Part shown: piece after piece, positions 18,082 through 64,000 of the stretch | Layout: each line of letters opens with the position of its first letter | How positions within the stretch are numbered: the first letter of the stretch is position 1 | Assembly (NCBI GenBank): GCA_919902675.1 | Contig: CAKKRH010000020.1 | Span: forward strand, 5,110 to 69,109 | DNA: 64,000 nt | Direction of reading: 5' to 3' | From: Omnitrophica bacterium GWA2_41_15 | GTDB lineage: Bacteria; Omnitrophota; Gorgyraeia; Gygaellales; UBA12090 | Notes under the pieces: generated by a model | What the model was told of the DNA's origin: nothing | Seen by the model: the letters and a program-made list of their open reading frames with translations, nothing else | Databases searched by the model: none | Made by a program: the position numbers and the translations under genes

Positions 18082-18130
18082 CCTTCAGCTTTCAGCTGAT
18101 AGCCGAAAGCCGAAAACAGAAAGCCGAAAA
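18082..18130. repeat. Intercistronic word element built from 'ttcagc' and 'gccgaaa' words
   Basis: 'ccttcagctttcagctgatagccgaaagccgaaaacagaaagccgaaaa' fills the gap between the two permease genes. The arms are imperfectly complementary. It shares the 'ttcagc' word with 23865-23907. Confidence 0.55.
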
Positions 18131-18979
18131 ATGAAAAATCCTTTATATTATAAAACCAAGAATATCGCGGTTAATACAGTTATCCATATCTTTCTGCTTA
18201 CGATTGCGGTAAGCTGCGTCTTTCCTCTTTTATGGATGATTGGCTCAAGCCTCAAAACGCAGAGCACTATATTTTCGGATGTCTCTTTGATTCCCCGTCA
18301 GATGCATTGGGAAAATTATTATATTGCCTGGAAAGAAGGCGGATTCGGCAGGTATTTTATTAACAGCATTTTTTATACCACCGCGGTGGTTATCGGAATA
18401 ATCGTGGTCTCTTCTTTGGCGGCTTATGCCTTTTCCCGTTTTAATTTCCGTGGAAAAAATCTGATGTTTTACGCTTTTATGGCGGCAATGATGATACCTA
18501 TCCCGGGAAGCTTCGTTCCTTTATATGTCCTTTTAAATAAACTGCATTTGAGGAATACCCAGTTAGGCTATATTCTCTGTATGATAAATGTGGGACTATC
18601 CACCAGCATATTCTTGTTCAAGACTTTTTTTGACAAAATGCCCCGTGAGCTTGAGGACGCCGCCAGGATTGACGGCTGCACTAAATTCGGGATATGGTGG
18701 AATGTGGCTTTACCTTTAGCCAAGCCGGTTCTTGCGGTGGTGGTGGTTTTTAACGCTCTTAATGTCTGGAATGAGTATTTGCTGGCCCTGTTGATTTTTG
18801 ACAGCCGTTCTCTGATGCCTCTGCAGGTGGCTTTGATGACCTTTCAGGGGGAATATATTACCCGTTATCATCTTTTGATGGCCGGCCTGACCATAACCGC
18901 CATACCCATAATTATTGTCTATTGCCTGATGCAGAAATATATCGTCAAAGGCGTGACCCAGGGGGCGATTGTAGGATGA
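18131..18979 (+). CDS. Sugar ABC transporter permease (MalG-like)
   Basis: EAA loop 'EDAARIDGCTKFGIWWNVALPL'. Polytopic membrane protein. Confidence 0.85.
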   Translation: MKNPLYYKTKNIAVNTVIHIFLLTIAVSCVFPLLWMIGSSLKTQSTIFSDVSLIPRQMHWENYYIAWKEGGFGRYFINSIFYTTAVVIGIIVVSSLAAYAFSRFNFRGKNLMFYAFMAAMMIPIPGSFVPLYVLLNKLHLRNTQLGYILCMINVGLSTSIFLFKTFFDKMPRELEDAARIDGCTKFGIWWNVALPLAKPVLAVVVVFNALNVWNEYLLALLIFDSRSLMPLQVALMTFQGEYITRYHLLMAGLTITAIPIIIVYCLMQKYIVKGVTQGAIVG

Positions 18980-21291: not shown

Positions 21292-21333
21292 AACAAAGCT
21301 AAGAGTTAAGAATTAAGAAAAGGAGGAAGTAAA

Positions 21334-25494: not shown

Positions 25495-28400
25495 AAAACT
25501 CAAAACTCAAAACTCAAAACTCAAAATAAATATAAATGCCAAATATCAAAACTTAAATCAAATATTTTATCATTTGTCATTTGTGCTTTGTTATTATTTT
25601 GTCATCTGCGCTTTGTTATTTGTCATTAATCCTGTAACTGCTTTTGCCCAGGGCGCGATAGGCGATTATCTCTGCGAGATTGCCGAATCCTATTATCTTG
25701 ACGGCCGATATGAGGAAGCCTTGGATGAATTCAATAAGGCCCTGCTTGCCGATCCCGAGAATGTTAAGGCCAGGAAATATGTGGATAAGCTTAACGGAGA
25801 ATCTAAATGCGCGCTCAAGCTGAAAGAGGCCAAAGAAATAAAGATTAAAGAGAGCGCCTTGCCTGCCGGCAGACAAGGCAGGCAGGATTTTAACTTTTCT
25901 TCCCCGGAAGAAAAAGCCTACCCTTTTGAGCTATCCATTCCTTCTTCGGAAGAATCCCCCGCCCTTGGCGGGACAAGAGGGGCAGATTTACCTGTAGCAG
26001 AGGAGCCGGCCGCAATCCTTCCCCTTAAAAAAGAGAGCCTTGGCAAAAAGAAAGCCGCGGCTTTAACCGGTTCTCGTGAAGGCGCGCCAGAAGAATCCGT
26101 CTTAGCCAAAACCGGGCCAAAAAGAATAGAATCTAAAGCAAGTCCCGAACCAAAGGTTATTTCTGAAAGAAAACATACTGTTAAGTCGATTATTCCGGAA
26201 GAAACCAGGCCCAGGAAATTAATTGCCAGGAACGAGGCGGAAAAGAGAAAAATTATTTCCTCGACTTTGAATGATTATATAAAAGAGGAGAGGCTTAAAA
26301 AAGGCGAGGTCAGTCCGGTTGAGCTCTCCGGAGAATACCAGGTTTCCCTGGGCGCTACCTCCGAAGGCTTTGAATGGAAAAGGGCCAACGGAAATCTTAA
26401 TGAAAGGGATTATCATATTTTGTCGGACGCGGCCTTAAATAATCGCGAAAATACCTTTGACCACCGGGTATTCAGCCGTTTCCGGACCAACCTGGATGCT
26501 AAGAGTGATTACGGCCTGAGTTTCCATACCAATATTACGGTTGACCCTTGGAGCTTTACCGGTAAGACCGATAAGTTCACCCTTAGAAGCGCCTCCGGAA
26601 CGGACAGCGCCGAAATTGAGTTGAAATATTGGTCGGCTACCGGACGGATTTTTAACGAGACTTTTTACACCAAAAACTTAGGAGACTCTTTTGCCATTCC
26701 GGAAATCAAGGTCGAGGACGATATGACTTCGGCCCTGGCCCAGAAGACAACCTTTGGTGGGACTTTCAATATCCCTTCAAAGAAAATTCATCGCGAGTTC
26801 CAGCCTGTAAGGGAATTATGGTTTGATTACGCCATGGATGATGCTAAGCTCAGGGTTTTCCCTATGGCTTTAAGCGATCAGGCCCTAACCAGCGATGACC
26901 CTTTAGGGCTTTCTAACCACCATATTTACTGGGAGGAAAGCCCTTGGATTCTAAAATGGGAGCCGGGTCATTTTAACAGCGGTGCCGGAGCCAGCGATTT
27001 TAGCTTAGGAAAATGGAGCGATTCTTTGGCTTTTTCTACCCGCGACAGCGATATGGTCCGGTTGACCGCTTTAAGGGGATTGTCTTTTGACTATCAGCCA
27101 ACGGATGAAACCTCATTTAAGCTGACCGGTGCCTCCCCTAAGGGCCTCTGGCAGGAGTATAATAGTTTTGACAATTTTCCCCTGGCCGCGCGCCTTAAGC
27201 AGGGCGTAGGGGATAAGTTAACGTTGGGCACTACCTATACTTACCGTTTAGGCCTGAATGAAGACGAGAATTACGAGCGGGACGCGGTGAATTATACCTG
27301 GGGACTTGATTCCGGATACAGCCCGGTTACCGGGACCAAGATAGAAAGCCAGGTAGCGGCTTCACTTTCTAAACAGGACATATCTTCCTCTTATTCCAGT
27401 AATAAGCGGGGAATGGCCTATCATTTGGCTTTATTGGGTTCACCCGACATGGACCTTTTAGGCTTGAATTACCATTCTATCAAACCCGAAGAAACGGATT
27501 TTTCTTTCTTTAAAGGAAGGCTGCAATTTACCCATATGGGTGAAGGCTTTGACCCGGCTTTAGCCAGCTATCGGGAAACCCGTAAGGATAGATTTTGGTC
27601 CCGGCATATCCATTTTAGGAAACCCTTTGCCAGGTTTTACAGCGATACCGATTATAATGAGCCCAGTTTAAGCTGGGATGACATAGCCCCTTCTGCTATC
27701 GGCGACGGAATTGATATCGGCAGGAATGTCTTTGGTCTGCGCCTGGAGGCTTCAACTTTAGACCGTAAGCTGGATGAACTTTTTGATATTAGAAATGCGC
27801 ATAAATCTAACGGTAAATACCTGGAAAATGTAGCCCGTTCGGAAACCACCTATAAACCTACTGAGAAGCTAACCACCAAGGTTTTAGCGATTTATCACGA
27901 TATGCATCAAACCCATGCCGGGAAAGACCCTTATTTATCAGATGGAAGCGACAGAATTGTTGATAATAGCATTATCCCGGATGACAAAAACCCTTCAACG
28001 AAGACTTTTTCTTTAGGAGCGAATTATGATTTCTTTGATTGGGTGTCGGCGTATAGTATTTGGGAATATTCTAATGATATTAACGCGGCCTACGAAGCCT
28101 TTCCCCGGGGAATTTTAAACAGCGGAAGCTTTGAGACCTTCAGTGAATACGGAAAGACCTTTCGCAGGTCAACCACCTTTTTGTATAACCAATATTATTT
28201 TCCCCTGCCGCCCTATCCTTTTAATAATGCTTATAAATTCGGGATTACCCTGCGCCCGGCAAAAAAGTGGGAGATATTCTTGGATTTTACCCGCAATGAA
28301 TATGAATATGCCGGGCCAATCACTGATGACATTAACCACGCCGGAATAGAGATAGCCTACGCCTTCAGCGAAAAGCTGAAATTTTTCACCAAGTACGCCT

Positions 28401-32366: not shown

Positions 32367-32461
32367 GGCAAAAGTAAAAATTCAAAACTACAACTCAAAA
32401 TTAAAAAAAGTTTTGTCTTTTAACTTGTGATTTTGAGTTTTGCGTTTTTACTTTTGAGTTG
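32367..32461. repeat. Imperfect 95-bp A/T word palindrome (intergenic)
   Basis: Left 'ggcaaaagtaaaaattcaaaactacaactcaaaatt'. The reverse complement of the right arm reads 'caactcaaaagtaaaaacgcaaaactcaaaatcac'. Same word set as 18982-19076. Confidence 0.7.
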
Positions 32462-35962: not shown

Positions 35963-37246
35963 ATGAAAAAAATATTATATGTTGTATTGGACGGATTGGG
36001 GGATTTACCGATAAAAGAACTGGGGGATAAGACGCCTTTAGAGGCGGCGTTAACACCCAATATGGATAAGCTGGCCCAAAAGGGAAAGACCGGCATAGTC
36101 TATCCGGTAGCTAAGGGAATCGCCCCGGAATCGGATGTGGCGGTAATTTGCCTGTTGGGCTATGACGCTCATAAATATTATACCGGCCGCGGCCCTCTGG
36201 AATCGTATGCCGAGGGATTAGAAATCCATGACGGCGATTTAGCGCTACGGGTTAATTTCGCGACTGTGGATAAAGACGGTAAAACTATTCTTGACCGCCG
36301 GGTGGGAAGGAACCTTGCTACCGAGGAAGCCAAGGAATTAGCCCAGGAAATAAATTCTAAGGTAATTTTAAGTTCCGGAACCTTTGAATTTCGCAGTACC
36401 ATCGGACATCGGGGGGTTTTGGTTATTCGAAGCCAGCGCGGCCGTTTATCCGGCTGGATTACCAATCCTGACCCGGCTTATGGCCGGGAAGGGGTATTTG
36501 GAGTGGCCTTAGAGAAGTTTCCTAATACCATTCAGGAATCAAAACCGGTTGAAGGCCATGAAAATGACCCCAAGGCGGTTGAGGCAGCCAAACTGATTAA
36601 TGAATTCACCCAAAAGGTTTTTCATGTCCTTCAGGAGACTAAGGTTAATAAAAGACGCGTTTCTGAAGGTAAAATGCCTGGTAATGCTATTGTTTCCCGT
36701 GATGCCGGGGATTGTCTACCTAAGTTTCCTTCTTTTACAAAAGCCAACGGCCTGAGGTTTGGTTCTTTTGTCCAGATGCCGGTGGAAAAAGGGATTGCCC
36801 TTTTAACAGGGATTGATGTAGTGAATTTACCCTTATCCACGGGAAATTCGGAAATAGATTATCCTTTGTGGGCGGAGACTGCCGTTAAAAAGAGTAAAGA
36901 TTTTGACGGCCTGTATATCCATATCAAAGGCCCGGATGAACCGGCCCACGACGGTAATTTTAACAAGAAAAAGGCCTCAATTGAAGAAATAGATAAGTTT
37001 TTCTTCGGCAGCCTCCTGCCCAAGATTGATTTGAACGATTTCATCATTGCGATAACCGCGGACCATTCTACCCCCTGCAAGCTCAAAAGCCACTCGGCTG
37101 ACCCTGTGCCGCTTTTAGCTGTCGGCGGCAATATCAAGCCCGACGGCTCTTTGAGCTTCTCCGAAAAGACCGCCAAGCTCGGCTCAATAGGCGAACTCAC
37201 CGGCCAGGAAATTTTGCCTTTCCTTGTGCAACACGCTAAAAAATAG
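35963..37246 (+). CDS. apgM: Cofactor-independent phosphoglycerate mutase, archaeal-type
   Basis: 'ILYVVLDGLGDLP', 'TPNMDKLA', 'PESDVAVICLLGYD', 'ITADHSTPC'. Confidence 0.8.
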   Translation: MKKILYVVLDGLGDLPIKELGDKTPLEAALTPNMDKLAQKGKTGIVYPVAKGIAPESDVAVICLLGYDAHKYYTGRGPLESYAEGLEIHDGDLALRVNFATVDKDGKTILDRRVGRNLATEEAKELAQEINSKVILSSGTFEFRSTIGHRGVLVIRSQRGRLSGWITNPDPAYGREGVFGVALEKFPNTIQESKPVEGHENDPKAVEAAKLINEFTQKVFHVLQETKVNKRRVSEGKMPGNAIVSRDAGDCLPKFPSFTKANGLRFGSFVQMPVEKGIALLTGIDVVNLPLSTGNSEIDYPLWAETAVKKSKDFDGLYIHIKGPDEPAHDGNFNKKKASIEEIDKFFFGSLLPKIDLNDFIIAITADHSTPCKLKSHSADPVPLLAVGGNIKPDGSLSFSEKTAKLGSIGELTGQEILPFLVQHAKK

Positions 37247-37307
37247 GGACACATCCCATTTTTTCACAAGGTAAGGAAAGGAAAAATGGGATGTGTCCCT
37301 ATTTTTT
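37238..37307. repeat. REP/BIME-like inverted doublet, copy 1 (may also act as a bidirectional terminator)
   Basis: Perfect 26-nt arms 'aaaaaatagggacacatcccattttt' and 'aaaaatgggatgtgtccctatttttt'. Each arm contains its own small hairpin (ggga-caca-tccc). Overlaps the apgM stop and ends 7 nt before the RayT-like ATG. Confidence 0.8.
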
Positions 37308-37314
37308 ATAAAGT

Positions 37315-38019
37315 ATGCCCCGTATTGCAAGAGTCGTTGCCGCTGATTATCCCCACCATATTATCCAAAGAGGCAATAACCGCCAGTTGGTATTTTTTGA
37401 TGATGCCGATAGGCAGTTGTATTTAAAACTATTAAGAAAGTATAGCTTGGAATGCGGTTGCAGAGTAAAAGCATACTGTCTTATGGACAACCACGTTCAT
37501 CTTTTGCTGGTTCCTCTTGAAGGCGTGGCGCTTGCCAAAACAATGCAAAAGCTGAGCTTGACCTTTACTCAACATATAAACAAGAAATATAAGAGGACAG
37601 GCCGGTTATGGGAATGCAGGTTTCATTCTTGTTTGGTGGATAAAGATGTTTATTTGTGGGCTGTATGCAAATATATAGAGAGGAATCCGGTGCGCGCGGG
37701 AATCGTTGTTTATCCGCAGGAATATTCCTGGTCGAGCGCAAGAATTAGCACTGCTTTAAATTGCCAGAATAACTGGGTAGAGCCTGTCTGGAAGGATTAT
37801 CTGGGAAGCAGAGAAGAGTATGCTAAATTCTTGAATCAGGCAGAATTAGAAAAAGAGTTGGAAGAAATGCAGAAAGCTGTTTTTAGCGGAAAGCCTATCG
37901 GCACAGAGCAGTTTCTAGAGATGATGCATAAACAACAGGCAGGAATTAATATGGCGATTCGTGCGGTAGGAAGGCCAAGGAAACACGGAAGAGCCAGTGT
38001 TTCTCCTTTAAGAAAATGA
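37315..38019 (+). CDS. REP-associated tyrosine transposase-like protein (IS200/IS605 Y1 HUH family)
   Basis: 'DYPHHIIQRGNNRQ', HUH motif 'DNHVHLLL', catalytic-Tyr region 'CKYIERNPVRAGIV'. No TnpB partner present. Confidence 0.8.
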   Translation: MPRIARVVAADYPHHIIQRGNNRQLVFFDDADRQLYLKLLRKYSLECGCRVKAYCLMDNHVHLLLVPLEGVALAKTMQKLSLTFTQHINKKYKRTGRLWECRFHSCLVDKDVYLWAVCKYIERNPVRAGIVVYPQEYSWSSARISTALNCQNNWVEPVWKDYLGSREEYAKFLNQAELEKELEEMQKAVFSGKPIGTEQFLEMMHKQQAGINMAIRAVGRPRKHGRASVSPLRK

Positions 38020-48142: not shown

Positions 48143-48211
48143 AAAATAGGGACACATCCCATTTTTTCCGGGAAATAGCTCTGGAAAAATGGGATGTGTC
48201 CCTATTTTTTT
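48143..48211. repeat. REP/BIME-like inverted doublet, copy 2
   Basis: Same arms as 37238-37307 ('aaaatagggacacatcccatttttt' and 'aaaaatgggatgtgtccctattttttt') with a different 17-nt spacer. Directly after the phoR stop. Confidence 0.8.
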
Positions 48212-51756: not shown

Positions 51757-52657
51757 TAGAGTAATCAATAAAAGATTGGATGGGCTGTTTAAAGCGCTGG
51801 GCATACTGACCACAGTTTTCGGGTTATCGGTGCTTTTGGTCCTGTTTATTGATGTGTTCTTAGACGGGGCCTCAAGGCTAAGCCTTGATTTTTTTACCAG
51901 CTTTCCCTCCCGTAAGCCGGAAGCCGCGGGGATACTTTCGGCCTGGGTGGGCACGATCTGGATTATGGCGGTTACCGGATGTATCGCGCTTCCTTTGGGA
52001 ATAGGTTCAGGCATTTATCTTGAGGAATACGCCCCAAAAAACAGGCTCACCGCTTTGATTGAGATAAGCATCGCTAACCTTGCCGGGGTGCCCTCGGTAA
52101 TTTTCGGGCTTCTGGGGTTAGGGCTTTTTGTGCGCTGGTTTAACTTAGACAGGAGCGTCTTAGCCGGAGGCCTTACTTTAGCCATTTTAGTCTTACCGGT
52201 AATCATTCTTTCCACGCGGGAGGCGCTTCGGGCCATACCTTTTTCCATCAGGGAGGCCTCCTACGCCGTAGGGGCGACCAAGTGGCAGACGGTATATTGC
52301 CAGGTGCTCCCCGCAGCACTCGGCAATATTATGACCGGGGTCATCCTGGCAATGTCCCGGGCAGTGGGGGAGACCGCCCCCTTAATCACCATAGGCGCCC
52401 TTACCTATATCGCTTTCCTGCCCCAGGCTCCGGTTGCTTTTTCGGGAGAGTTCCCTTTTATCCATTTGAGCCTTCAAGGGTTATTTGACCCTTTCACTGC
52501 CCTGCCTATTCAGATATTTAACTGGGTGTCCCGTCCGCAAAAGGGCTTTTCGGTGAATGCCTCGGCAGGGATTATCGTTCTTCTGGGGATTACTTTGGCA
52601 ATGAACAGTGTCGCCATAATTTTACGTTATCGTCAACGAAAAAAGACAAGGTGGTAA
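51749..52657 (+). CDS. pstA: Phosphate ABC transporter permease PstA
   Basis: '[23 protein letters not shown]'. 8-nt overlap with pstC. Confidence 0.9.
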
Positions 52658-53418
52658 AGATGAATAACACAGCTTTCAGCATAAAACAAATGCGCGCCTT
52701 TTACGGAGCAAAAGAGGTGATAAAGGGGGTGGATATTTCCATTATGCCCAATACGGTTACGGCCTTAATCGGGCCTTCCGGATGCGGCAAGAGCACCTTT
52801 ATACGCTCGCTTAACCGCATCAACGACCTGATTCCTTCTTTTCGGATCTCCGGCGATATAATGTACCGGCAGAAGGATATTTATGACAAGGAAACGGATG
52901 TGGTGGAGCTGCGCCGGCGCGTGGGCATGGTGTTCCAGAAACCTAATCCGTTCCCAAAATCCATTTACGAGAATATCGCCTATGGCTTAAGGATTCACGG
53001 CTTAAACATCAAAGACACCATAGATGAGATCGTGGAATCCAGCCTTAAAAAAGCCGCCCTCTGGGATGAGGTAAAGGATAATCTGAAACAAAACGCCCTC
53101 ACTCTTTCCGGAGGCCAGCAGCAGCGGCTCTGCATTGCCCGGACATTAGCCACCCAGCCGGAGGTTATCCTTTTTGATGAGCCATGCTCCGCGCTTGACC
53201 CGATTTCCACCGCCAAGATAGAGGAGCTCATTCATCACTTAAAACAAAATTACACTATCGTTATTGTTACCCACAATATGCAGCAGGCAGCAAGGGTTTC
53301 TGACTATTCCGGATTCTTCCTGCTGGGCGAGCTGATTGAGGTTGGCAGGACCCATGAGATATTCACCGCGCCCAAAGATAAGCGCACGGAAGAGTATATC
53401 ACGGGGAGGTTTGGATAG
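52651..53418 (+). CDS. pstB: Phosphate ABC transporter ATPase PstB (all motifs canonical)
   Basis: Walker A 'GPSGCGKST', Q-loop 'VFQKPNPFP', signature 'LSGGQQQRL', Walker B 'ILFDEP', H-loop 'VTHN'. Confidence 0.95.
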
Positions 53419-53532
53419 CAGTCTCGGGTCACCAGTCGCCAGTCTCGGGTTTCTGGTCTCGAGTCATCGGTGACCGGTGACTCGAGATTGGCGACTGAAA
53501 ACCAGCGACCGACGACCGGAGACTGGAGACTG
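53419..53532. repeat. 114-bp imperfect word palindrome filling the pstB-phoU spacer ('cagtctcgggtc' family)
   Basis: Starts at the base after the pstB stop and ends 5 nt before the phoU ATG. Centre '...ctcgagtcatcggtgac|cggtgactcgag...'. The outer ends 'cagtctcgggtc...' and '...ggagactggagactg' are imperfectly complementary. Confidence 0.75.
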
Positions 53533-53537
53533 ATAAA

Positions 53538-54203
53538 ATGGAACGGCATTTGGACAAGGAATTGCAGGAGCTCAAGACAGAGATTCTGCGTATGGGCGGC
53601 CTGGTGGAAAATGCTATCGGGGTCTCCGTGGAAGCCTTGAAACAATTAGACAGGCTTGCGGCGGAAAAGGTCATCTGCTCTGATAAGGCAATTGACGAGT
53701 TGGAGCTTGGCATTGATGAGAAGAGCCTGGATTTGCTTGCCTTGTATCAGCCTATGGCTGTGGACCTGCGGTTTATCACTATGGCAATGAAGATTTCCAC
53801 CGACCTGGAGCGGATGGCGGATCTGGCAGTTGATATTGCCCAGAGGGTTCTGGAGCTTTCCGGCAAACCCCTGCTTAAGCCTTTGGTGGATATCCCGCGC
53901 TTAGCCGCCGTGGCGCAGGATATGACAAAGGGGGCGATAGATTCCTTTGTCGGGGCGGATGTGTCTTTGGCAAAAAATGTGATTCTGCGCGATACGGAGG
54001 CGGACAGCCTGCGCAATAAAGTTCAGGTTGAATTGATCAATGACTATATAGCCAAAGATAAATCCAGCGTTTCCCGGGCCATCCCCTTGCTTCTGATTGC
54101 CCGCCATCTGGAGCGCGTCTGCGACCACGCCACCAATATCGCCGAAGACGTGATTTATATGGTTGAGGCCAGGGTGGTCAGGCATCATCAGGAAAAGCTG
54201 TAA
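53538..54203 (+). CDS. phoU: Phosphate signalling regulator PhoU
   Basis: 221 aa with two PhoU repeats: 'DLRFITMAMKISTDLERMADLAVDIA' and 'ARHLERVCDHATNIAEDVIYM'. Confidence 0.9.
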   Translation: MERHLDKELQELKTEILRMGGLVENAIGVSVEALKQLDRLAAEKVICSDKAIDELELGIDEKSLDLLALYQPMAVDLRFITMAMKISTDLERMADLAVDIAQRVLELSGKPLLKPLVDIPRLAAVAQDMTKGAIDSFVGADVSLAKNVILRDTEADSLRNKVQVELINDYIAKDKSSVSRAIPLLLIARHLERVCDHATNIAEDVIYMVEARVVRHHQEKL

Positions 54204-54263: not shown

Positions 54264-54506
54264 CTATGGAAGCTTTAGATAAGGGGGAAGGCGTTCAGAC
54301 AGCCATACCTTTATAACGGATTGCCGGGGGATGCCCAGTCGTTTAGCTTCTCGGTCCAAAGAGTGAATCATCCAGATAGGGAAATCAACATTGACCCGTT
54401 TTTGTTCCTGGTTGGGCCTTAGGGCCTTTGAGATGTTAAGATGTTTAGATATATCCTCCCCGGAATCAAACTTTTTGTCAAATTCCTTAGCTTTCATAAA
54501 TATCAA
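54264..54506 (-). CDS. brnA: BrnA-like antitoxin (RHH/CopG-type)
   Basis: 'RVNVDFPIWMIHSLDREAKRLGIPRQSVIKVWLSERL'. Downstream of and overlapping the BrnT-like gene. Confidence 0.65.
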   Translation of the reverse strand: MIFMKAKEFDKKFDSGEDISKHLNISKALRPNQEQKRVNVDFPIWMIHSLDREAKRLGIPRQSVIKVWLSERLPPYLKLP

Positions 54507-54747
54507 CCTCCTCTTGCCTGGCGCGGCGCGCGGAAATGATTCTTATTCTTTCTCCTCTACGCGTAATCACGGCAGACCAATGTTTGTCTTGTATGCGCCC
54601 TATTATCAAAAATCTTGGTTCATCGCCCGTTTTAGCCGGGATTTCAATGAAATCCGGGTTCTTCCATAATAATTGCGCTTCAATAAAATCAATCCCGTGT
54701 TTATTCTTGTTAGTTTGGCTCTTTACGGGGTCATATTCAAATTCCAT
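54487..54747 (-). CDS. brnT: BrnT-like toxin (DUF497)
   Basis: 'MEFEYDPVKSQTNKNKHGIDFIEA...ERIRIISARRARQEE'. Start placed at the internal ATG (54747) rather than the track start at 54786. Confidence 0.75.
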   Translation of the reverse strand: MEFEYDPVKSQTNKNKHGIDFIEAQLLWKNPDFIEIPAKTGDEPRFLIIGRIQDKHWSAVITRRGERIRIISARRARQEEVDIYES

Positions 54748-54895
54748 AGTATATAAAATATACCATAAATATACCTTTATTGTCAACTTTTTTATGGTAT
54801 CAGAGTATCCTTTTTAAAAAATCTAAGATAATTTCTTGCGCAGGCAGGCCGTCTTCGGTTCAGGTCTGTTTTTGTGCCTACTTGCTTCTTTTCTG

Positions 54896-55840: not shown

Positions 55841-55842
55841 AG

Positions 55843-55912
55843 ACGCGAATACGCGCGAATTAAAATATTCGCGAATAAACCTGAAATGGCAGTGATTCGC
55901 GTACACTCGCGT
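55843..55912. repeat. Nested 'cgcgaat/attcgcg' word palindrome (pstS2-pstC2 spacer)
   Basis: Exact 'cgcgaat-taaaat-attcgcg' core, flanked by further cgcgaat/attcgcg words. Confidence 0.6.
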
Positions 55913-55918
55913 TAAAAA

Positions 55919-57633: not shown

Positions 57634-58418
57634 AAAACAAAGGTAAGAGTCAAAAGGAAAAAGGCAAAAGCCAGGTAAAGATTGAAGTTAAAGAGTTGAA
57701 TATCTGGTTTGGAAAGGCTTTGGCCCTAAACAGCCTTAACCTGGAAATTCAGGCCAATGAAATCCTGGGGGTGATTGGCCCGGCCAATAGTGGAAAGACC
57801 TCTTTTTTAAGGCAGTTGAACCGGCTTAATGAGTTAGAGCTGAGTTTTAAAATGAGCGGAGAGGCCTTTCTGGATGCTAAGAATATTAATCAGCTTAAGC
57901 CTGAGGTTTTAAGGAAAAGGGTAGGGATGATTTTTGCTTTGCCCCAGGTCTTGCCGATGTCTATTTACGACAATGTTACCTACGGCCCCAGGATGCACGG
58001 GATAAATAACAAACAAGAGTTAGCCCGGATAACGGAAGAAGCGCTCAAGGCCTCTTTTTTATGGGATGAGGTCAAGGATAGGCTTAAGGAATTTGCCACC
58101 AAGCTTTCCGGAGGCCAGCAGCAACGTTTATGTATATCCCGCACCCTGGCAGTCCGGCCGGAGGTCATACTTTTTGATGAGCCGTGCTCCGGGCTGGACC
58201 CTATTTCCACCGCCAAGGTTGAGGAGTCAATGCTCCGGCTTAAAGAGCAGTATACTATCGTTCTGGTTACCAATAACACCAAACAGGCCGCCAGGGTGGC
58301 TGACCGCACCGCGTTTTTTCTGATGGGTGAGCTGATAGAAATAGATAAGACGCATAAGATATTTACCGCGCCCCGGGACAAGAAGACAGAGGATTATATA
58401 CAGGGGAAGTTTGGATAA
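57627..58418 (+). CDS. pstB: Divergent PstB ATPase: H-loop His replaced by Asn, Q-loop Gln replaced by Ala, signature intact
   Basis: 'GPANSGKTS', 'MIFALPQVLP' (Ala codon 57936-57938 aligns to the Q-loop Gln), 'LSGGQQQRL', 'ILFDEP', 'LVTNNTKQ' (Asn codon 58272-58274 aligns to the H-loop His). Confidence 0.85.
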   Translation: MVENKGKSQKEKGKSQVKIEVKELNIWFGKALALNSLNLEIQANEILGVIGPANSGKTSFLRQLNRLNELELSFKMSGEAFLDAKNINQLKPEVLRKRVGMIFALPQVLPMSIYDNVTYGPRMHGINNKQELARITEEALKASFLWDEVKDRLKEFATKLSGGQQQRLCISRTLAVRPEVILFDEPCSGLDPISTAKVEESMLRLKEQYTIVLVTNNTKQAARVADRTAFFLMGELIEIDKTHKIFTAPRDKKTEDYIQGKFG

Positions 58419-58442
58419 CAGTCTCGGGTCTCGAGTCGCCAG
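58419..58442. repeat. Left-arm fragment of the 'cagtctcgggtc' element
   Basis: 'cagtctcgggtctcgagtcgccag' begins at the base after the pstB2 stop, exactly as at 53419. Confidence 0.6.
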
Positions 58443-58510
58443 CCAACCTTGACCCGCCTCTCCACCTTTGGCGGAGGGCGAGGTCTCGTCAAATTGCTAC
58501 GCAATTTGAC

Positions 58511-58527
58511 GGACGCTCAGGCGAACT
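58511..58527. repeat. Left inverted repeat bounding a 1.48-kb cassette
   Basis: 'ggacgctcaggcgaact'. The reverse complement of 59974-59989 is 'ggacgccaggcgaact' (identical except for one extra t). Preceded by a perfect 10-bp hairpin, cgtcaaattg-ctacg-caatttgacg (58487-58511). Confidence 0.6.
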
Positions 58528-58558
58528 ATAGTATCGCCAATAACAAAAGAGGTGCAAA

Positions 58559-58981
58559 ATGTTTAAAAAAGTGTGGCTTCTGATTTTGTTAGTAGGTAGC
58601 ATTCTAGCAATATATTGCTACGCGCAAGGAAATGAAGAGATTGTGTTTTCTGGAGTTCCAGCTGTCAAAATTAGCGAAGGCGGCGTTAGTCGTGTAGTCG
58701 AAGATTTGAAAGGGGCTAAGGTATCGGAAGCAGAATGCGTAATTACTAAAACCGGCGATAAATATTTTTGGAAGACCAGAAATAATACGGAACTATTTAT
58801 GATTAAAAGCGGCGCTTTTGTGAGTTTTATCGCAACGAATGGGTCAGGCTACGTACGTATTATTCCTTCTGATTTTAAAGAAGCGGCATCTTTAATGGAC
58901 GAAACAGAAAAGAAATACGATTATGCCGAACACTTATTAATAGGTCTTAGGTCTGTCACCTATTACGGGAAGTCAAAATAA
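58559..58981 (+). CDS. Small secreted hypothetical protein
   Basis: Signal peptide 'MFKKVWLLILLVGSILAIYCYA'. RBS 'aaagaggtg'. AT-rich. Confidence 0.5.
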   Translation: MFKKVWLLILLVGSILAIYCYAQGNEEIVFSGVPAVKISEGGVSRVVEDLKGAKVSEAECVITKTGDKYFWKTRNNTELFMIKSGAFVSFIATNGSGYVRIIPSDFKEAASLMDETEKKYDYAEHLLIGLRSVTYYGKSK

Positions 58982-59042
58982 CAATCGGTTGTCATTTAGG
59001 TTATCATTTTTAATTCTAGCAGAAACATATTAAAGGCGTTCA

Positions 59043-59774
59043 ATGTCAGTAATAGTGTATCTTGATGAAAGCGGGGATCATTCACTTGAGCTTGTTGATA
59101 AAGACTTTCCATTCTTTGCTCTTGCAATGTTTATTTGCGAGGAAAAAGTATATAATCAGAAAATCTCCCCAGCGATTAACCAGTTTAAAATGGATTTTTT
59201 TGGGCACGAAGCGGTTATAATTCATTCGCGAGATATACGTAAAGCCCAGCACGATTTCGGAATTCTTACTAATCCTGTTAAGCGAGAAGAATTTTATAAG
59301 AAATTAAACCTGATAATGTCGGATTCAGATTACCAGTTAATAGTTTCTGTGATAAAAAAGCAAGACCATAAGGAAAAGTATGGTATATTTGCAGATAATC
59401 CTTATGACTTGGCAATGACATTCTGTATGGAGAGGCTCTTACCATTACTCGAAGAGAAGGGGCAGGGCAAAGTTCAGCTTATCGCAGAAAGTCGCGGCAA
59501 AAAGGAAGACGATGAGTTAATGCTTAGTTTTTTGCGGATTGCTAATCAAGGTACCGATTATGTGCCCGAAGATCGATTTAAAAAGATAAATTTTAAGTTG
59601 AAATTTGTTCCCAAAATGATGAATGTGGTAGGCACGCAGTTAGCGGATTTGGCAGCCTATCCGGTCGCTCGTTATATACACAATCCTAATAAGCCGAATC
59701 CTGCATATGATATTGTAAAAACGAAATTTTACAAGGGCAAAGGAGGGATACAGGGGTTAAAAATATTCCCATAA
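59043..59774 (+). CDS. DUF3800-family protein
   Basis: N-terminal 'VIVYLDESGDH' and 'IIHSRDIRK', typical of DUF3800 as I recall it. One sampled 60-nt line gives 32% GC. Confidence 0.65.
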   Translation: MSVIVYLDESGDHSLELVDKDFPFFALAMFICEEKVYNQKISPAINQFKMDFFGHEAVIIHSRDIRKAQHDFGILTNPVKREEFYKKLNLIMSDSDYQLIVSVIKKQDHKEKYGIFADNPYDLAMTFCMERLLPLLEEKGQGKVQLIAESRGKKEDDELMLSFLRIANQGTDYVPEDRFKKINFKLKFVPKMMNVVGTQLADLAAYPVARYIHNPNKPNPAYDIVKTKFYKGKGGIQGLKIFP

Positions 59775-59778
59775 AAAC

Positions 59779-59808
59779 AAAAAGCTCCGATTTGCATCAG
59801 AGCTTTTT
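59779..59808 (+). terminator. Candidate rho-independent terminator
   Basis: 'aaaaagctccga-tttgca-tcagagcttttt'. About 10-bp stem with one mismatch, then a T-run. 5 nt after the stop of 59043-59774. Confidence 0.45.
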
Positions 59809-59973
59809 GCCGACCGGGAATCCCCAGTCCCTTGAATCAAATTATATATAAACTATACATGAAAGAACGCTATTTGTCAAGGCTTTTGTTAGAAATTAGC
59901 CCAACCGGATAAATCCGCCTTTATAATGGCGAACAGTTATCTTCACAAGTAGGTGAAGCACTTGAGGTTCTGA

Positions 59974-59989
59974 AGTTCGCCTGGCGTCC
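59974..59989. repeat. Right inverted repeat bounding the cassette
   Basis: 'agttcgcctggcgtcc', partner of 58511-58527. Confidence 0.6.
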
Positions 59990-59997
59990 AGTTCGGG

Positions 59998-60079
59998 CAG
60001 TCTCTGGTTTTTAGTCTTGAGATGGGTGAAAAAACCATAGAATTAATTTTAAAAATGACTGGAGACCGGCGACTAAAAT
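59998..60079. repeat. Decayed copy of the 'cagtctcgggtc' palindrome upstream of pstB3
   Basis: 'cagtctctggtttttagtcttgagatgggtg' parallels 'cagtctcgggtttctggtctcgagtcatcggtg' (53441-53473), with mostly transition differences. It ends 'gactggagaccggcgactaaaat', like 53519-53537. Confidence 0.55.
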
Positions 60080-60081
60080 AT

Positions 60082-60837
60082 ATGTCTAAAATAGTCACTA
60101 AAAATCTAAATCTCTGGTATGGCGCCTTTCAGGCCTTGAAAAGCGTTAACCTGTCTTTCGAGCCAAACCGGATTACCGCGATTATCGGTCCTTCGGGATG
60201 CGGCAAATCCACGCTTTTGAGAGTTTTTAACCGGATGAACGATTTGATTGACGGAGTGCGCCTGGAAGGCGAGGCGCGCATTGATGATGAAAATATTTTA
60301 GGCGGCAATTTTGATGATTTGGTGCGCTTACGCAAAAAAGTAGGCATGGTTTTTCAAAGGCCTAATCCCTTCCCGCTCTCGGTGTATGAAAACATAACTT
60401 TCGGGCTTAAGGTGCACCATTTAGCCAAAAAAAAAGACTTTGACGCCATTGTCCAGGAGGCTTTAGAGTCGGTAATGCTTTGGAAGGATTTAAGGGATAA
60501 ATTGCGTAAAGATGCCTTAGGGTTATCTTTGGAGCAGAAGCAGAGGCTGTGCATTGCCAGAACAATCGCGGTTAAACCGGATATCGTGTTGATGGATGAG
60601 CCCTGCTCGGCCCTTGACCCCCAGGCAACTTTAAAGATAGAAGAGCTGATGCAGAAACTCAAAAAAGATTACACGATTGTGATTGTTACCCATAATATGC
60701 AGCAGGCCGCGCGGGTCTCTGATGATACCGGTTTTATGCTTTTAGGCGAGTTGGTTGAATTTGGAAAGACAGTGGAAATATTTACCGCGCCCAAAGATAA
60801 AAGGACGGAAGAGTATATCACGGGAAGATATGGATAA
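60082..60837 (+). CDS. pstB: PstB paralogue with degenerate ABC signature (LSLEQ); other motifs canonical
   Basis: 'GPSGCGKST', 'VFQRPNPFP', 'LSLEQKQRL' (60523-60537), 'VLMDEP', 'VTHN'. Start moved to ATG 60082 because the track start at 60022 lies inside the repeat. Its 3' end is nearly identical to the pstB1 3' end at the DNA level. Confidence 0.85.
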   Translation: MSKIVTKNLNLWYGAFQALKSVNLSFEPNRITAIIGPSGCGKSTLLRVFNRMNDLIDGVRLEGEARIDDENILGGNFDDLVRLRKKVGMVFQRPNPFPLSVYENITFGLKVHHLAKKKDFDAIVQEALESVMLWKDLRDKLRKDALGLSLEQKQRLCIARTIAVKPDIVLMDEPCSALDPQATLKIEELMQKLKKDYTIVIVTHNMQQAARVSDDTGFMLLGELVEFGKTVEIFTAPKDKRTEEYITGRYG

Positions 60838-60840
60838 ATT

Positions 60841-60975
60841 AAACCCTAAATTCAAAACCCTAAATCCTAAATAAACTCAAAATTCCAAACTCGAAATCTA
60901 AAACAAACTTTTTAGTTTAAAGTTTGTGATTTTGGATTTGTTTAGAGTTTAGAATTTAGTGTTTAGAGTTTATTA
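60841..60975. repeat. About 135-bp imperfect 'ctaaa/tttag' word palindrome filling the pstB3-phoU2 spacer
   Basis: Left arm is rich in 'ccctaaa', 'tcctaaa', 'ctcaaaa'. Right arm is rich in 'tttagag', 'tttagaa', 'tttggat'. Centre 'caaactt...aagtttg'. Confidence 0.6.
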
Positions 60976-60989
60976 AAGCGGAGGAAGAA

Positions 60990-61655
60990 ATGGAACGTAT
61001 ATTTGATGAAGAATTAAAGCAATTGCGTCAATATATATTGACTATGGCATCTTTGGTTGAAGAAGCCATTTTTAAATCAATAGAGGCGCTTAAGCAAAGG
61101 GATAAATCGCTGGCCGAGGCGGTCATCGCCTCCGACAAAAGAATAGACGAGTTGGAGAATAAGATCGATGAATTTTGTCTTGATCTTATCGCCCTTCGCC
61201 AGCCGGTGGCCCAGGACTTGCGTTTTATTACCATGGCGATGCAAAGCGATGCTGACCTTGAGCGGATGGCGGACTTGGCGGTAGACATTGCCCAGAGGGC
61301 GCAAGAGCTCACTGCCCAGCCGCCGTTAAAACCGTTAATTGATATTCCGAAATTGGCGGAAATCGCTCAGAAAATGGTAAAAGAAGCAATCGATGCCTTT
61401 ATTAATAAGGACGTAGAATTAGCAAAGAAGGTTGTCTTTGCGGATAGAGAAGCGGACGCGCTTCGTGATTTGATTCAGAAGGAATTGATTTACGATTATA
61501 TGGTAAAAGACGGCTCAACCGCGCCTCGCGCGGTTCCCTTAATTTTAGTTACCCGCCATTTAGAGCGTATCTGCGACCACGCCACCAATATCGCTGAAGA
61601 CGTGATTTATATGACAGACGCGAAGATGGTCAGGCATCATCCTGAGAAACTCTGA
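60990..61655 (+). CDS. phoU: PhoU, second copy
   Basis: 221 aa, colinear with 53538-54203. A run of about 44 nt differs from copy 1 at only one position ('gaccacgccaccaatatcgc.gaagacgtgatttatatg'). Confidence 0.9.
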   Translation: MERIFDEELKQLRQYILTMASLVEEAIFKSIEALKQRDKSLAEAVIASDKRIDELENKIDEFCLDLIALRQPVAQDLRFITMAMQSDADLERMADLAVDIAQRAQELTAQPPLKPLIDIPKLAEIAQKMVKEAIDAFINKDVELAKKVVFADREADALRDLIQKELIYDYMVKDGSTAPRAVPLILVTRHLERICDHATNIAEDVIYMTDAKMVRHHPEKL

Positions 61656-61692: not shown

Positions 61693-62385
61693 ATGGGGAA
61701 AGAAGAAAACTATAAAAGAATCAAGAAATTCTGCCTTAATTGGGGCGCGGATTTATTCGGCACAGCCGATGTTTCTTCGCTTAAGGATGGCTTTGCCGTT
61801 TCAGTTAAGGCCGCCAAAGATTTAAACACCGCGATTTCTCTGGGGGTGCGGGTTTCGTCAGGGGTTCTTTCTGAAATCGAAAATCAACCGACCAAGCTTT
61901 ACTTTCATCACTATCGCGTGGTAAATATGTTTCTGGATCAGCTGGCCATGCGCCTGAGTAACTTTATCCAGAACTCAGGCTCTCAAGCCCTGCCTATCCC
62001 GGCTTCAATAATCGTGGACTGGCAAAGACAGACCGCCCATCTTTCGCATAAACATATAGGATATTTAGCCGGCATGGGCTGGATAGGCCGGAATAATCTA
62101 TTGGTGAATAGGGCCCTGGGCAGTCAATTCCGCCTGATAACCGTGCTTACGGATATGCCTTTAAAATACGATAAACCGGAAAAAGAAGATTGTGGAAATT
62201 GCCGGGCTTGTGTGGTAGTATGTCCGGTAAAGGCTATAAAGGAAAAAAAAGAGGATTTTGACCATTTGGGCTGCTTTGAACTGCTTAAGGATTTTCAGAG
62301 GCAGAAAATTGTAGACCAGTATATCTGCGGGATATGCGTTAATATTTGCCGGGGGAAAAATGCCAAAAGCCGCCAATCATATTGA
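61693..62385 (+). CDS. QueG-like / reductive-dehalogenase-superfamily Fe-S protein
   Basis: 'AGMGWIGRNNLLVNRALGSQFRLITVLTDMPL' followed by the ferredoxin motif 'CGNCRACVVVCPVKAI'. Shorter than typical QueG. Confidence 0.45.
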   Translation: MGKEENYKRIKKFCLNWGADLFGTADVSSLKDGFAVSVKAAKDLNTAISLGVRVSSGVLSEIENQPTKLYFHHYRVVNMFLDQLAMRLSNFIQNSGSQALPIPASIIVDWQRQTAHLSHKHIGYLAGMGWIGRNNLLVNRALGSQFRLITVLTDMPLKYDKPEKEDCGNCRACVVVCPVKAIKEKKEDFDHLGCFELLKDFQRQKIVDQYICGICVNICRGKNAKSRQSY

Positions 62386-63055
62386 AGCCCTTTCCAAGAT
62401 AGCCCAGGCTATTACTTCAGAGCTTTATCTGGATGACATCCTGCGCCTGATAGTTACGGTTACCGCCCAGACCCTGGGTTCAAAAATCTGCTCTTTGATG
62501 CTCTTAGATGAGAAGAAACAGGAGCTGATTATCCGGGCAACCCAGTCTATATCCGAGAGCTATAACAAAAAGCCGCCTCTAAAAATCGGCGAGGGCATTG
62601 CCGGTAAGGCAGTCGCAGAAAAAAGGCCGATCGCGGTGTATGATGTCCTTCAGGAAAAGGAGTATAAATATAAAGATATAGCCAAGAAGGAAGGCCTGGC
62701 TTCTTTGTTGTGTGTTCCGATGATGGTAAAAGGAAAGGTAATCGGAGTTATCAATCTTTATACTTCCAAGCCTCATAGCTTTACCAAGAACGAAATCCAT
62801 ATGCTGACTACCGTGGCCAATCAGGCGGCAATGGTGATTGAAAATACCGAACTGATAGTAAAGAGCCGGATTATTCAGGAAGAGCTGGAAACCCGCAAGG
62901 TTGTGGAAAAGGCCAAAGGGATATTGATGCGGGAACAAGGCCTGCCTGAGGATGAGGCCTATCGGACGATTCAGAAATACAGTATGAATTCGCGCAAGTC
63001 AATGCGCCAGGTAGCCGAGGCGATTGTTACGGCTCAGGCAGTAAAAGAGAGATAA
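62360..63055 (+). CDS. GAF-ANTAR RNA-binding antiterminator-type regulator
   Basis: GAF-like N-terminal half. ANTAR 'RKVVEKAKGILMREQGLPEDEAYRTIQKYSMNSRKSMRQVAEAIV'. Confidence 0.75.
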   Translation: MPKAANHIEALSKIAQAITSELYLDDILRLIVTVTAQTLGSKICSLMLLDEKKQELIIRATQSISESYNKKPPLKIGEGIAGKAVAEKRPIAVYDVLQEKEYKYKDIAKKEGLASLLCVPMMVKGKVIGVINLYTSKPHSFTKNEIHMLTTVANQAAMVIENTELIVKSRIIQEELETRKVVEKAKGILMREQGLPEDEAYRTIQKYSMNSRKSMRQVAEAIVTAQAVKER

Positions 63056-63154: not shown

Positions 63155-63427
63155 ATGGATTGGAAGATATTTTTTACCGCCTTCGGGACCATATTCCTGG
63201 CAGAGTTGGCGGATAAGACCGAGATGGCGGTTTTAAGCCTGACCGCCAAGACTAAATCTCCCTGGCCGGTATTCTGTGGGGCGATGCTGGCCTTTGGAAT
63301 AGCCACTCTACTGGCAGTGGTTTTTGGCGGGGCCATCGGGAAATTTGTCCCGGAGAATATTTTGCGCATGGTAAGCGCCGGGATATTTATCCTTATTGGA
63401 GTCTTGACCTTGATGGGAAAGCTTTAG
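63155..63427 (+). CDS. UPF0016 (GDT1/TMEM165) half-size cation transporter
   Basis: 90 aa, three hydrophobic segments, signature 'ELADKTEM' (E-x-x-D-K-T). Confidence 0.65.
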   Translation: MDWKIFFTAFGTIFLAELADKTEMAVLSLTAKTKSPWPVFCGAMLAFGIATLLAVVFGGAIGKFVPENILRMVSAGIFILIGVLTLMGKL

Positions 63428-63428
63428 G

Positions 63429-64000
63429 ATGGGGGAAAAAGAGGCGGTAACTGAGGCGGCCAAGATTATCGGAATCTCTATCCGCACCGCGCCCAAAAGC
63501 GCCGGCGTGGATGATATTTCATATAAGATATTAAGTGATTCTGAAAAGACAGCCCTGGTTAATGAAATTAAGAAGATGGCCGTCTTTCTGATTAAGGAAA
63601 ATAGCGAAGAAAAAACCAAGAAGGCGATAGAATTGGATTGGCATAGCGACGCGGACGCGATTGATAAGTCTGATTGCCTGATTATTATAGGAGTCAAAGG
63701 CAGAAAGCCTTTAGGCTTTAACTGCGCAGGATGCGGCTTTAAAGGCTGTCAGGAATTTTTAAGCGCTCCTCGTCCGGAAACCATATTTATGCCCGGCCCT
63801 TTCTGCGTATTTAAGCTCTTGGATTTAGGCATTGCCATCTCCAGCGCCGCCAAGAGCGCCTCTACCCTGAACATTGATAACCGGATAATGTACCGGGCGG
63901 GGCTGGCCGGATATAAATTAGGCCTGCTGAATGAGTGTAATCCCGTTCTCGGGCTTCCCCTTTGTTCGTCCGGAAAAAATATTTATTTTGACCGTAAGGA
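63429..64000 (+). CDS. DUF2148-like ferredoxin-domain protein, 3'-partial (not in ORF track because no stop lies in the window)
   Basis: My own translation from ATG 63429: 'MGEKEAVTEAAKIIGISIRTAPKSAGVDD...LIIIGVKGRKPLGFNCAGCGFKGCQEF...'. The frame stays open to the window end. Confidence 0.55.
   Translation, partial: MGEKEAVTEAAKIIGISIRTAPKSAGVDDISYKILSDSEKTALVNEIKKMAVFLIKENSEEKTKKAIELDWHSDADAIDKSDCLIIIGVKGRKPLGFNCAGCGFKGCQEFLSAPRPETIFMPGPFCVFKLLDLGIAISSAAKSASTLNIDNRIMYRAGLAGYKLGLLNECNPVLGLPLCSSGKNIYFDRK

Follow-up and report, generated by a model that had tools for sequence, protein, structure and literature searches.

Long palindromes built of seven-nucleotide words occupy both pstB–phoU spacers in a stretch of 64,000 nucleotides (the window, below; contig CAKKRH010000020.1) from Omnitrophica bacterium GWA2_41_15, of the phylum Omnitrophota. 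The first, between pstB1 and phoU1, is GC-rich and is called here the main element; the second, between pstB3 and phoU2, is AT-rich (Table 1). We consider it probable that both are similar to the short tandemly repeated repetitive (STRR) sequences of cyanobacteria, and that such heptanucleotide palindromes are generated and turned over by repeat dynamics at the DNA level, being tolerated at gene junctions, downstream of a stop codon and ahead of the ribosome-binding site (RBS) that follows it.

The left arm of the main element consists of about seven GTCNCNN words (53421–53469), which in register from 53421 read GTCTCGG, GTCACCA, GTCGCCA, GTCTCGG, GTTTCTG, GTCTCGA and GTCATCG. About nine reverse-complement words follow (53470–53532), and the right arm closes with GAGACTG GAGACTG. 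The predicted RNA fold is a single long hairpin, whose outer pair (C53419–G53532) lies 1 nt past the pstB1 stop codon (TAG, 53416–53418) and 5 nt short of the phoU1 ATG (53538). Its minimum free energy (MFE) was −71.0 kcal/mol, compared to −40.1 ± 3.9 kcal/mol for 200 dinucleotide-preserving shuffles (z = −8.0; 0/200 as stable), and arm-wise shuffling gave a fold z of −9.2. The autocorrelation at lag 7 was 0.63 (z = 9.1), and besides lag 7 only lag 14 stood out. We also found inverted repeats (I1–I6), direct higher-order repeats of 21/14 nt inside the arm, and a period-7 row at 53514 in the output of Tandem Repeats Finder (TRF).

The second element begins 3 nt downstream of the stop codon of pstB3 (TAA, 60835–60837) and ends 8 nt ahead of the Shine–Dalgarno (SD) sequence GGAGG (60980–60984). 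Its MFE was −38.5 kcal/mol, as opposed to −21.3 ± 3.4 kcal/mol for 200 shuffles (z = −5.1, 0/200), and shuffling arm by arm, which keeps the A-rich/T-rich asymmetry, gave a fold z of −5.3. The lag-7 autocorrelation reached 0.57 (z = 6.3), and period-7 rows were returned by TRF across 60840–60972.

An initial annotation of this DNA had described the two spacers as long palindromes, the second one of A/T words, with arms made of 7-nt words, beginning 1–4 nt past the stop codon and ending shortly before the next RBS or ATG. All of these statements agree with the values above, and the names given to pstB1, pstB3, phoU1 and phoU2 agree with the NCBIfam models TIGR00972 and TIGR02135. The concern that the structures might prove no more stable than shuffled controls is dispelled in both cases.

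The main element was base-identical across 7 independent metagenome assemblies and the second across 6 (possibly all from one clonal population), including long contigs from the Hainich groundwater well H52, meaning that neither is an assembly artefact.

Orthologous pstB–phoU junctions

The best PhoU relatives were 86–87% identical (species-representative genomes, Joint Genome Institute metagenomes), and nearly all matches were metagenome-assembled genomes of Omnitrophota. We compared the junction in the closest relatives, whose PstB is 87–93% and PhoU 80–87% identical to that of the window (related loci carry L numbers). In five contigs (L002, L089–L092; PstB 92–93% identical) the spacer is an unstructured 14 nt, TAA-TCGGAGGAAAAATA-ATG. 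In three others it holds material unrelated to the main element: L094 has a 53-nt palindrome of ATCAGCC-type words, L088 a palindrome whose words are of the ACGAAGG type, and L001 a TAGTTTA-type array. The spacer of L093 (98 nt) is non-periodic. The initial annotation had stressed that the elements fill the spacer exactly, an appearance that probably arises because the ancestral spacer (∼14 nt) was little more than an RBS; the element itself would hence constitute the spacer.

Across 137 distinct related junctions, the spacer was shorter than 30 nt at 47, and at 23 (spacer >300 nt, most ∼393 nt) an extra gene lay between pstB and phoU. The one extra gene scanned (L097, 2612–2998) encodes a low-molecular-weight phosphatase/ArsC-type protein (Pfam LMWPc, E = 2e-25). 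Among the 67 mid-length spacers (30–300 nt), 31 had a hairpin with z ≤ −3 and 11 were 7-periodic. Structure at the pstB–phoU junction is thus common in the phylum and far from conserved, and the heptamer form is one of several. The claim that structure and placement are conserved while sequence is not therefore stands in part: hairpins recur, but the nearest junctions are empty or filled with unrelated arrays.

One of the other forms does recur with its sequence. At about 2940–3000 in L045, L064, L067, L071 and L072 (also L056 and L063), the pstB–phoU spacer carries a sequence-conserved hairpin without heptamers, consisting of CACCCGGCGC, a loop of 11–13 nt and GCGCCGGTG, in which one variant looks compensatory (CCCGCGC/GCGCGGG). 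This may be a genuinely conserved RNA element of the junction.

Vertical inheritance does not account for the second element. Similar elements, over which it is ∼72% alignable, occur in L151 and L119; the closer pstB3 orthologues, in L033 and L014 (75–78% identity), have short spacers, and it is the more distant L151 (71% identity) that has such an element instead.

The pstB_b–phoU element of L011 offers a view of how arms change. Where the left arm would call for AACTCGN, each word of its right arm is AACCCGN, so that the variant, present throughout the arm, gives an A·C mismatch in the sense RNA, and the spacer folds with z of only about −1.1 to −1.2 relative to shuffles.

Heptamer tracts at other boundaries and in coding 5′ ends

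A sliding-window census found 11 seven-periodic segments (895 nt) in the window, 11/11 at gene boundaries; the same threshold at lags 4–12 gave 0–7 segments and at most 309 nt. In 80 related loci (463 kb) there were 32 seven-periodic segments, clustered in particular lineages (L009 and L011, for example).

Three further spacers had been listed in the initial annotation as holding similar elements. That downstream of the LacI-family gene (32367–32461) does contain a true palindrome (lag-7 z = 5.3; fold z = −2.8 against dinucleotide shuffles and −3.6 against arm-wise shuffles). The tract at 18082–18130 is a heptamer array (lag-7 z = 7.0; TRF period 7) with a weak, marginal hairpin (fold z about −2). 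The pstS2–pstC2 spacer (55843–55912) had to be removed from the class, as it is not 7-periodic (lag-7 z = −1.8); its hairpin (55842–55913; −25 kcal/mol, z = −3.3) has CGCGAAT/ATTCGCG motifs with a period of ∼10 nt. The short tract at the pstA2/pstB2 junction had TRF periods of 7/14 and a lag-7 z of 2.9.

The GC word family of the main element occurs at three sites within the 64 kb, which share 19–24 nt; the remaining tracts use other words. The orphan half-array after pstB2, CAGTCTCGGGTCTCGAGTCGCCAG, matches the 19-nt pattern from 53419 with 0 mismatches (blastn, 91% over 34 nt), and CAGTCTCGGGTCnCnnGTCGCCAG follows the stop codon of pstB1 as well as that of pstB2, despite a protein identity of only 54% between the two. 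The third site is a weaker palindrome with its left arm at 59998–60021 and its right arm at 60057–60075 (fold −25.7, z = −2.9).

In relatives the gene order is pstB_a–element–pstB_b–element–phoU. In the window a 1.55-kb segment (58443–59997) parts pstB2 (a-type) from pstB3 (b-type), which adjoin in the relatives; it contains a 140-aa gene without a family match, a DUF3800 gene and a terminator-like hairpin, and GC-word half-arrays border it, as though it had been inserted into a palindrome. From this arrangement, 58419–58442 and 59998–60075 are probably the remains of a former pstB2/pstB3 junction element, split by the insertion. The two genes of the segment were considered as mobilisers of the GC words and rejected, neither having a transposase domain.

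Three tracts (18976, 23827 and 25487) lie within the first 100–150 nt of open reading frames (ORFs) that begin at a start codon overlapping the preceding stop codon and that encode signal-peptide-like N-termini. In the gene for a GH2-like secreted protein, 18976–19089 (translation, MRAKGKITSKNLKVAYFLLLSFGFTFLLFTFAFADG) had a lag-7 z of 6.4, versus −0.8 in the neighbouring mature codons. For 23846–23910, TRF gave a period of 7 with 6.3 copies and 89% matches, and a 14-nt unit repeated 2.9 times at 23865 with 100% matches (lag-7 z = 6.2–6.9). The (AAAACTC)×4.6 array at 25495 had 100% matches by TRF, and 25487–25640 a lag-7 z of 8.0–8.2. Periodic 5′ ends were seen in only 3 of the 44 genes of the window, and its other signal peptides lack them. 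Given this and the 11 boundary tracts, heptamer tracts are neither specific to pst nor general to secretion signals. The palindrome at 18976 could be aligned with that downstream of lacI through periodic A4/T4 words only, so that a word family is shared; homology is not shown.

We examined the DNA of seven orthologues of the GH2-like gene (L174–L180, positions 401–580), chosen for repetitive-looking N-termini, which biases any frequency taken from them. The signal-peptide codons were 7-periodic in 7/7 (z = 5.2–9.4), as opposed to z of −0.2 to −1.5 in the adjacent mature codons, and the words were lineage-specific (GCAAAAG, AAAAATC, TATCAAA, TTTTGCC, AAGGGTC/AACCCTT). The arms were complementary beyond composition (arm-wise shuffle z of −2.9 to −6.8; −2.6 in the window), the A-rich arm coding for a Lys-rich n-region and the T-rich arm for the hydrophobic core. 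Relative to L175 and L174 (93% and 88% protein identity), the window differs in these codons by exactly 3 × GCAAAAG (21 nt). Two other GH2-like orthologues, with plain-looking signal peptides, had neither 7-periodicity nor complementary arms, meaning that the presence of the array depends on lineage, as it does at the pstB–phoU junction.

The 84 arrays collected from the window and 160 loci have ∼60 different consensus heptamers, and no word core or termini were significantly shared among them. A common core NAGT/CAGT (compare CCCCAGT of STRR and the TAACTGA repeat) was tried and rejected, ACT/AGT, the best 3-mer apart from AAA, being weakly enriched (30 observed versus 20.4 expected, z = 2.6) and AAA being compositional. 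Among the consensus heptamers, ATG/CAT is under-represented (6 observed versus 18.4 expected, z = −3.4), a pattern that would be compatible with selection against accidental start codons in arrays at junctions.

This diversity bears on whether the arrays bind a protein, either a Pho regulator on the DNA or a multimeric RNA-binding protein reading a motif every 7 nt. HutP, for instance, reads UAG-N4 as a regularly spaced RNA motif; the regular spacing and the location of both pstB–phoU elements in pst operons would suit such a role. MacGregor (2015; PMC4679880) proposed protein binding for the TAACTGA repeats that lie immediately ahead of start codons. In our case a sequence-specific binding protein is argued against by the absence of a common motif across the 84 arrays, the words being wholly different between sites; moreover, tracts also occur in sugar-utilisation operons and coding regions, and close relatives do without them. 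The Pho boxes themselves have an 11-bp period, not 7. We give this explanation very little credence.

Elements also recur at more than one junction. L011 has three copies of one palindrome within 3 kb, ∼81% identical and with similar ends, which include the non-periodic loop TTTTGAAAAAGCATTTAAT. An element with a distinctive GC core, E1, lies at the pstB_b–phoU junction in L009 and at the pstB_a–pstB_b junction in L011, and is 85% identical between the two, where the pstB and phoU coding DNA is 77–82% identical.

Such observations would be expected of non-autonomous mobile elements, similar to REPINs (inverted doublets of repetitive extragenic palindromic, REP, sequences) or to miniature inverted-repeat transposable elements (MITEs), that are moved by a transposase encoded elsewhere; heptamer periodicity would then belong to the element family and not to slippage in situ. 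The families are dispersed, E1 sits at non-orthologous junctions, the loop is conserved among the L011 copies, and one word family occupies three sites of the window. In addition, relative to the empty site (TAA followed directly by TCGG), the L001 and L094 inserts have TAA...TAA flanks; these could have arisen by chance in an AT-rich context, and are absent in L088. A candidate transposase exists in the window, a Y1 gene at 37315–38019 resembling those of REP-associated tyrosine transposases (RAYTs; NCBIfam REP_Tyr_transpos, 71 bits with a cut-off of 80; Pfam Y1_Tnp, E = 3.6e-16). As mobiliser of the heptamer elements it was rejected, since no heptamer arrays flank it and its own hairpin is of another family: a perfect, non-periodic REPIN-like hairpin (GGGACACATCCCATTTTT–loop–complement, plus a T-run; 37246–37299) precedes the gene, and a second copy of the GGGACACATCCCATTTTT hairpin, at 48149–48202, follows a histidine kinase gene. 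The highly diverse words of the 84 arrays, with no shared core or common termini, also speak against mobile elements, and the perfect tandem arrays and the 21-nt whole-word indel point to growth in place. Overall we find this origin distinctly improbable.

Table 1. Heptamer elements of the window and the genes flanking the two pstB–phoU palindromes (positions are those of the window)
Feature	Position	Strand	Description
Heptamer array	18082–18130	+	Words CTTCAGC/TTTCAGC, followed by CCGAAAG; spacer of two sugar ABC permease genes
Heptamer-word palindrome	18976–19089	+	Signal-peptide codons of GH2-like secreted protein (gene 18976–21291)
Weak short heptamer tract	21295–21333	+	TAAGAAT-type; 42-nt spacer; TRF, lag-7 segment, z = 2.1
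Heptamer array	23846–23910	+	Near-perfect (TTTCAGC)×6 in 5′ codons of TPR protein; word family as at 18082
Heptamer array	25487–25640	+	Perfect (AAAACTC)×4.6, then TTTGTCA-type words; 5′ codons of 1050-aa TPR protein
Heptamer-word palindrome	32369–32456	+	xxCAAAA, then TTTTGxx; spacer after LacI-family gene
pstB1, upstream cistron	52651–53418	+	b-type PstB; NCBIfam TIGR00972, 414 bits
Main element	53419–53532	+	GC-rich heptamer-word palindrome occupying pstB1–phoU1 spacer
phoU1 SD, GGAG	53525–53528	+	Within last right-arm words, predicted paired at hairpin base; read from sequence
phoU1, downstream cistron	53538–54203	+	NCBIfam TIGR02135, 195 bits
Short heptamer tract	57634–57675	+	AAAAGGA/AAAAGGC; pstA2/pstB2 junction, in pstB2 N-terminal extension
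Orphan half-array	58419–58442	+	GC word family; directly after pstB2 stop codon
Third GC-word-family site	59998–60075	+	Weaker palindrome just upstream of pstB3; pattern matches both strands
pstB3	60022–60837	+	b-type PstB; NCBIfam TIGR00972, 368 bits, aligned from residue 24; conserved part from near 60085
Second element	60840–60972	+	AT-rich heptamer-word palindrome; TAAAnnC words, then GTTTAGA words
phoU2	60990–61655	+	NCBIfam TIGR02135, 208 bits

As to the wider surroundings, a protein with GAF and ANTAR (RNA-binding antiterminator) domains is encoded at 62360–63055, in the gene string of phoU2 and two genes further downstream. The minus-strand genes of the window are a BrnT toxin/CopG-type antitoxin pair between phoU1 and pstS2 (54264–54786) and an uncharacterised ORF (63308–63697); all other called genes are on the plus strand, and the GC skew is positive throughout. 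A giant ORF of at least 4,856 codons spans 42–14612.

Predicted RNA consequences and proposed origin of the elements

In the predicted fold, 3 of the 4 bases of the phoU1 SD are paired with a probability of 0.98–0.99, whereas the phoU2 SD lies outside the stem and is free (pairing probability about 0.05). When we forced open the 9–18 nt after the pstB1 stop codon, mimicking a terminating ribosome, the phoU1 SD stayed largely paired, because the 7-periodic arms re-register. Classic coupling, in which a ribosome at the pstB1 stop codon melts the stem and frees the SD, is therefore not supported by this model. Translation of phoU1 is predicted to be low, or may need ribosomes passed on to it where the stem closes.

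Strong hairpins right after a stop codon could also serve to end or reduce transcription between pstB and phoU, as intrinsic terminators or attenuators. However, both stems lack a U-tract behind them (the sequences there are AUAAAAUGG and UUAAAGCGG), and a consensus scan found no plus-strand terminator- or promoter-like site at either element, phoU having no promoter-like site in the spacer; the terminator total equalled that of shuffles. Since both U-tract and scored terminator are absent, transcriptional read-through is expected. The recognisable terminators of the window look different, being perfect stems with T-runs (37246–37308 and 48149–48210). We judge termination to be very improbable. 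In the whole window, Rfam 15 gave no match at gathering thresholds, and at E ≤ 1 nothing other than sub-threshold look-alikes of plant miRNA-precursor hairpins.

A stronger candidate is a selected RNA structure, which would set the ratio of the cistrons as an exonuclease barrier, as a site for RNase III or RNase E, or by controlling phoU translation, with the sequence free to change. REP hairpins stabilise upstream mRNA, and the REP elements of E. coli malE–malF are an established precedent. The likeness to intercistronic REP elements drawn in the initial annotation is apt, as these are very stable intercistronic hairpins inside operons, without a terminator tail or promoter consensus. The buried phoU1 SD points in the same direction. 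Even so, the spacer of the nearest relatives is an empty 14 nt, the two pstB–phoU elements relate oppositely to the SD, and like tracts occur at unrelated junctions and in coding 5′ ends. In L011 a mismatch that breaks pairing has spread to all words of one arm, leaving a fold no better than shuffles.

Selection on an mRNA helix should also favour G·U over A·C pairs. With a scoring that gave equal weight to both transition types, we compared the left arm with the reverse-complemented right arm and found no sense-strand excess of G·U over A·C (55 versus 60 arm mismatches, and 14 versus 12 in the signal-peptide set), although these counts are modest and the arm alignments ambiguous, since the arms are periodic. 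For want of this excess the palindromy appears to be a DNA-level feature. We hold a selected RNA structure to be unlikely, if worth serious attention.

On the reading that we prefer, repeat dynamics at the DNA level, slipped-strand expansion by 7-nt (or 14/21-nt) units would build the arrays, inverted duplication or template switching would make and re-copy the complementary arm, and recombination or an unknown mobilisation would copy elements between junctions. Selection would tolerate the tracts only where they are harmless, that is, between a stop codon and the next RBS, or in loosely constrained signal-peptide codons. The transcript would fold into a very stable, non-terminating hairpin, which would loop the insertion out and leave the pstB stop and the phoU start a few nucleotides apart in space. 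The buried SD at phoU1 should reduce synthesis of PhoU1 or tie it to ribosomes arriving from pstB1. Helices of 19+10 bp and ∼60 bp are plausible 3′-exonuclease barriers or RNase III substrates, and either hairpin could act as such, uncoupling the mRNA levels of pstSCAB and phoU. An effect of the elements on the pstB/phoU expression ratio is plausible. We regard RNA effects as side-effects, sometimes perhaps co-opted, and not as the reason why the elements exist.

Besides the limits of the G·U/A·C comparison, several points weigh against this reading. The hairpins in 31 of the 67 mid-length spacers and the clade that conserves CACCCGGCGC–loop–GCGCCGGTG may mean that structure is favoured at the junction. 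The persistence of the palindrome through changes of its words in the seven signal-peptide regions could likewise reflect selection for a hairpin. No length polymorphism was seen among the 6–7 assemblies, which possibly represent one clonal population, and the mechanism of origin was inferred from sequence patterns, no slippage or template-switch event having been observed.

A more far-reaching version, which we put forward tentatively and think rather unlikely, would see in the elements a self-renewing junction DNA of Omnitrophota, whose arms evolve in concert (molecular drive) and which the host co-opts for secretion signals and looped-out hairpins. The A-rich arm would provide the Lys-rich n-region and the T-rich arm the hydrophobic core, with length changing in 21-nt steps; the looped-out hairpin would allow a shunt-like coupling of termination and reinitiation at phoU1, where the SD would be permanently buried.

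Relation to known repeats and significance

The initial annotation called arms made of 7-nt words unusual, a view that cannot be kept, because heptanucleotide repeats have already been described in cyanobacteria, Xanthomonas/Nostoc, Beggiatoaceae and Geobacter. The defined STRR heptamers, which are repeated almost perfectly, are CCCCAGT (STRR1), TTGGTCA (STRR2) and CAACAGT (STRR3). Such 7-bp repeats form hairpins in the cyanobacterial hupS–hupL spacer, where transcript stabilisation or translational coupling was proposed (PMC2670836). The present elements resemble the STRR sequences of Nostoc, Anabaena and Lyngbya in being hairpin-capable tandem 7-nt units in intergenic spacers inside operons. 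They differ in their host, which is not a heterocystous or filamentous cyanobacterium; in their words, which are degenerate and vary with site and lineage (GTCNCNN; TAAAnnC/GTTTAGA) instead of a few defined heptamers; and in that the arrays are systematically joined to their reverse complement, giving palindromes of 100–180 nt, and also lie inside signal-peptide codons. Heptamer repeats are over-represented in some bacteria, with inverted arrangements noted in Xanthomonas and Nostoc (PMC4692102).

In marine Beggiatoaceae and some Cyanobacteria and Bacteroidetes, the TAACTGA arrays are concentrated between genes, a few nucleotides ahead of start codons (PMC4679880). Like the present tracts they are heptamer arrays near start codons with a patchy distribution across phyla; unlike them, they consist of a single conserved heptamer in 2–6 copies, nearly always direct (1 indirect set in 170), and form no long palindromes. 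Geobacter metallireducens has dispersed families of heptanucleotide repeats, GGGACCG ×4 and MTYCTGA ×5, for which a regulatory role was suggested (PMC2700814). These too are short heptamer-array families scattered between and within genes, but with a fixed consensus and copy number (4–5 words), and they were not described as long palindromes with complementary arms.

MITEs, such as the Correia elements of Neisseria, are short palindromic insertions that are co-transcribed, form long hairpins and may be RNase III substrates; they have defined terminal inverted repeats, target-site duplications and near-identical copies. Across the families seen here there are no such termini, apart from the weak TAA...TAA flank in two relatives. 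With REP sequences, bacterial interspersed mosaic elements and REPINs the elements share their nature of dispersed extragenic inverted repeats, often intercistronic, that form hairpins in single-stranded DNA or mRNA. REPINs, which are scattered doublets of inverted REP sequences tied to RAYT transposases, diverge fast between strains, for example of Pseudomonas fluorescens (PMC3116915). In contrast to their conserved, abundant 16-mer and RAYT linkage, the present arms are 7-periodic, with no core shared across the 84 arrays. In full-text literature searches we met no earlier account of heptamer repeats, or of palindromes, in Omnitrophota.

To the scattered bacterial phyla in which heptanucleotide repeats are over-represented, our results add an uncultivated phylum in which heptamer arrays are abundant, palindromic and fast-evolving, and which offers natural experiments: orthologous junctions that are empty or filled, the same element at different junctions, and three-word changes in a signal peptide. 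They also caution against taking each intercistronic hairpin for a regulator. If the elements are neutral, they measure how strongly repeat dynamics shape operon junctions; if they alter the PstB:PhoU ratio, they would let oligotrophic groundwater bacteria readjust their phosphate signalling quickly in the course of evolution.

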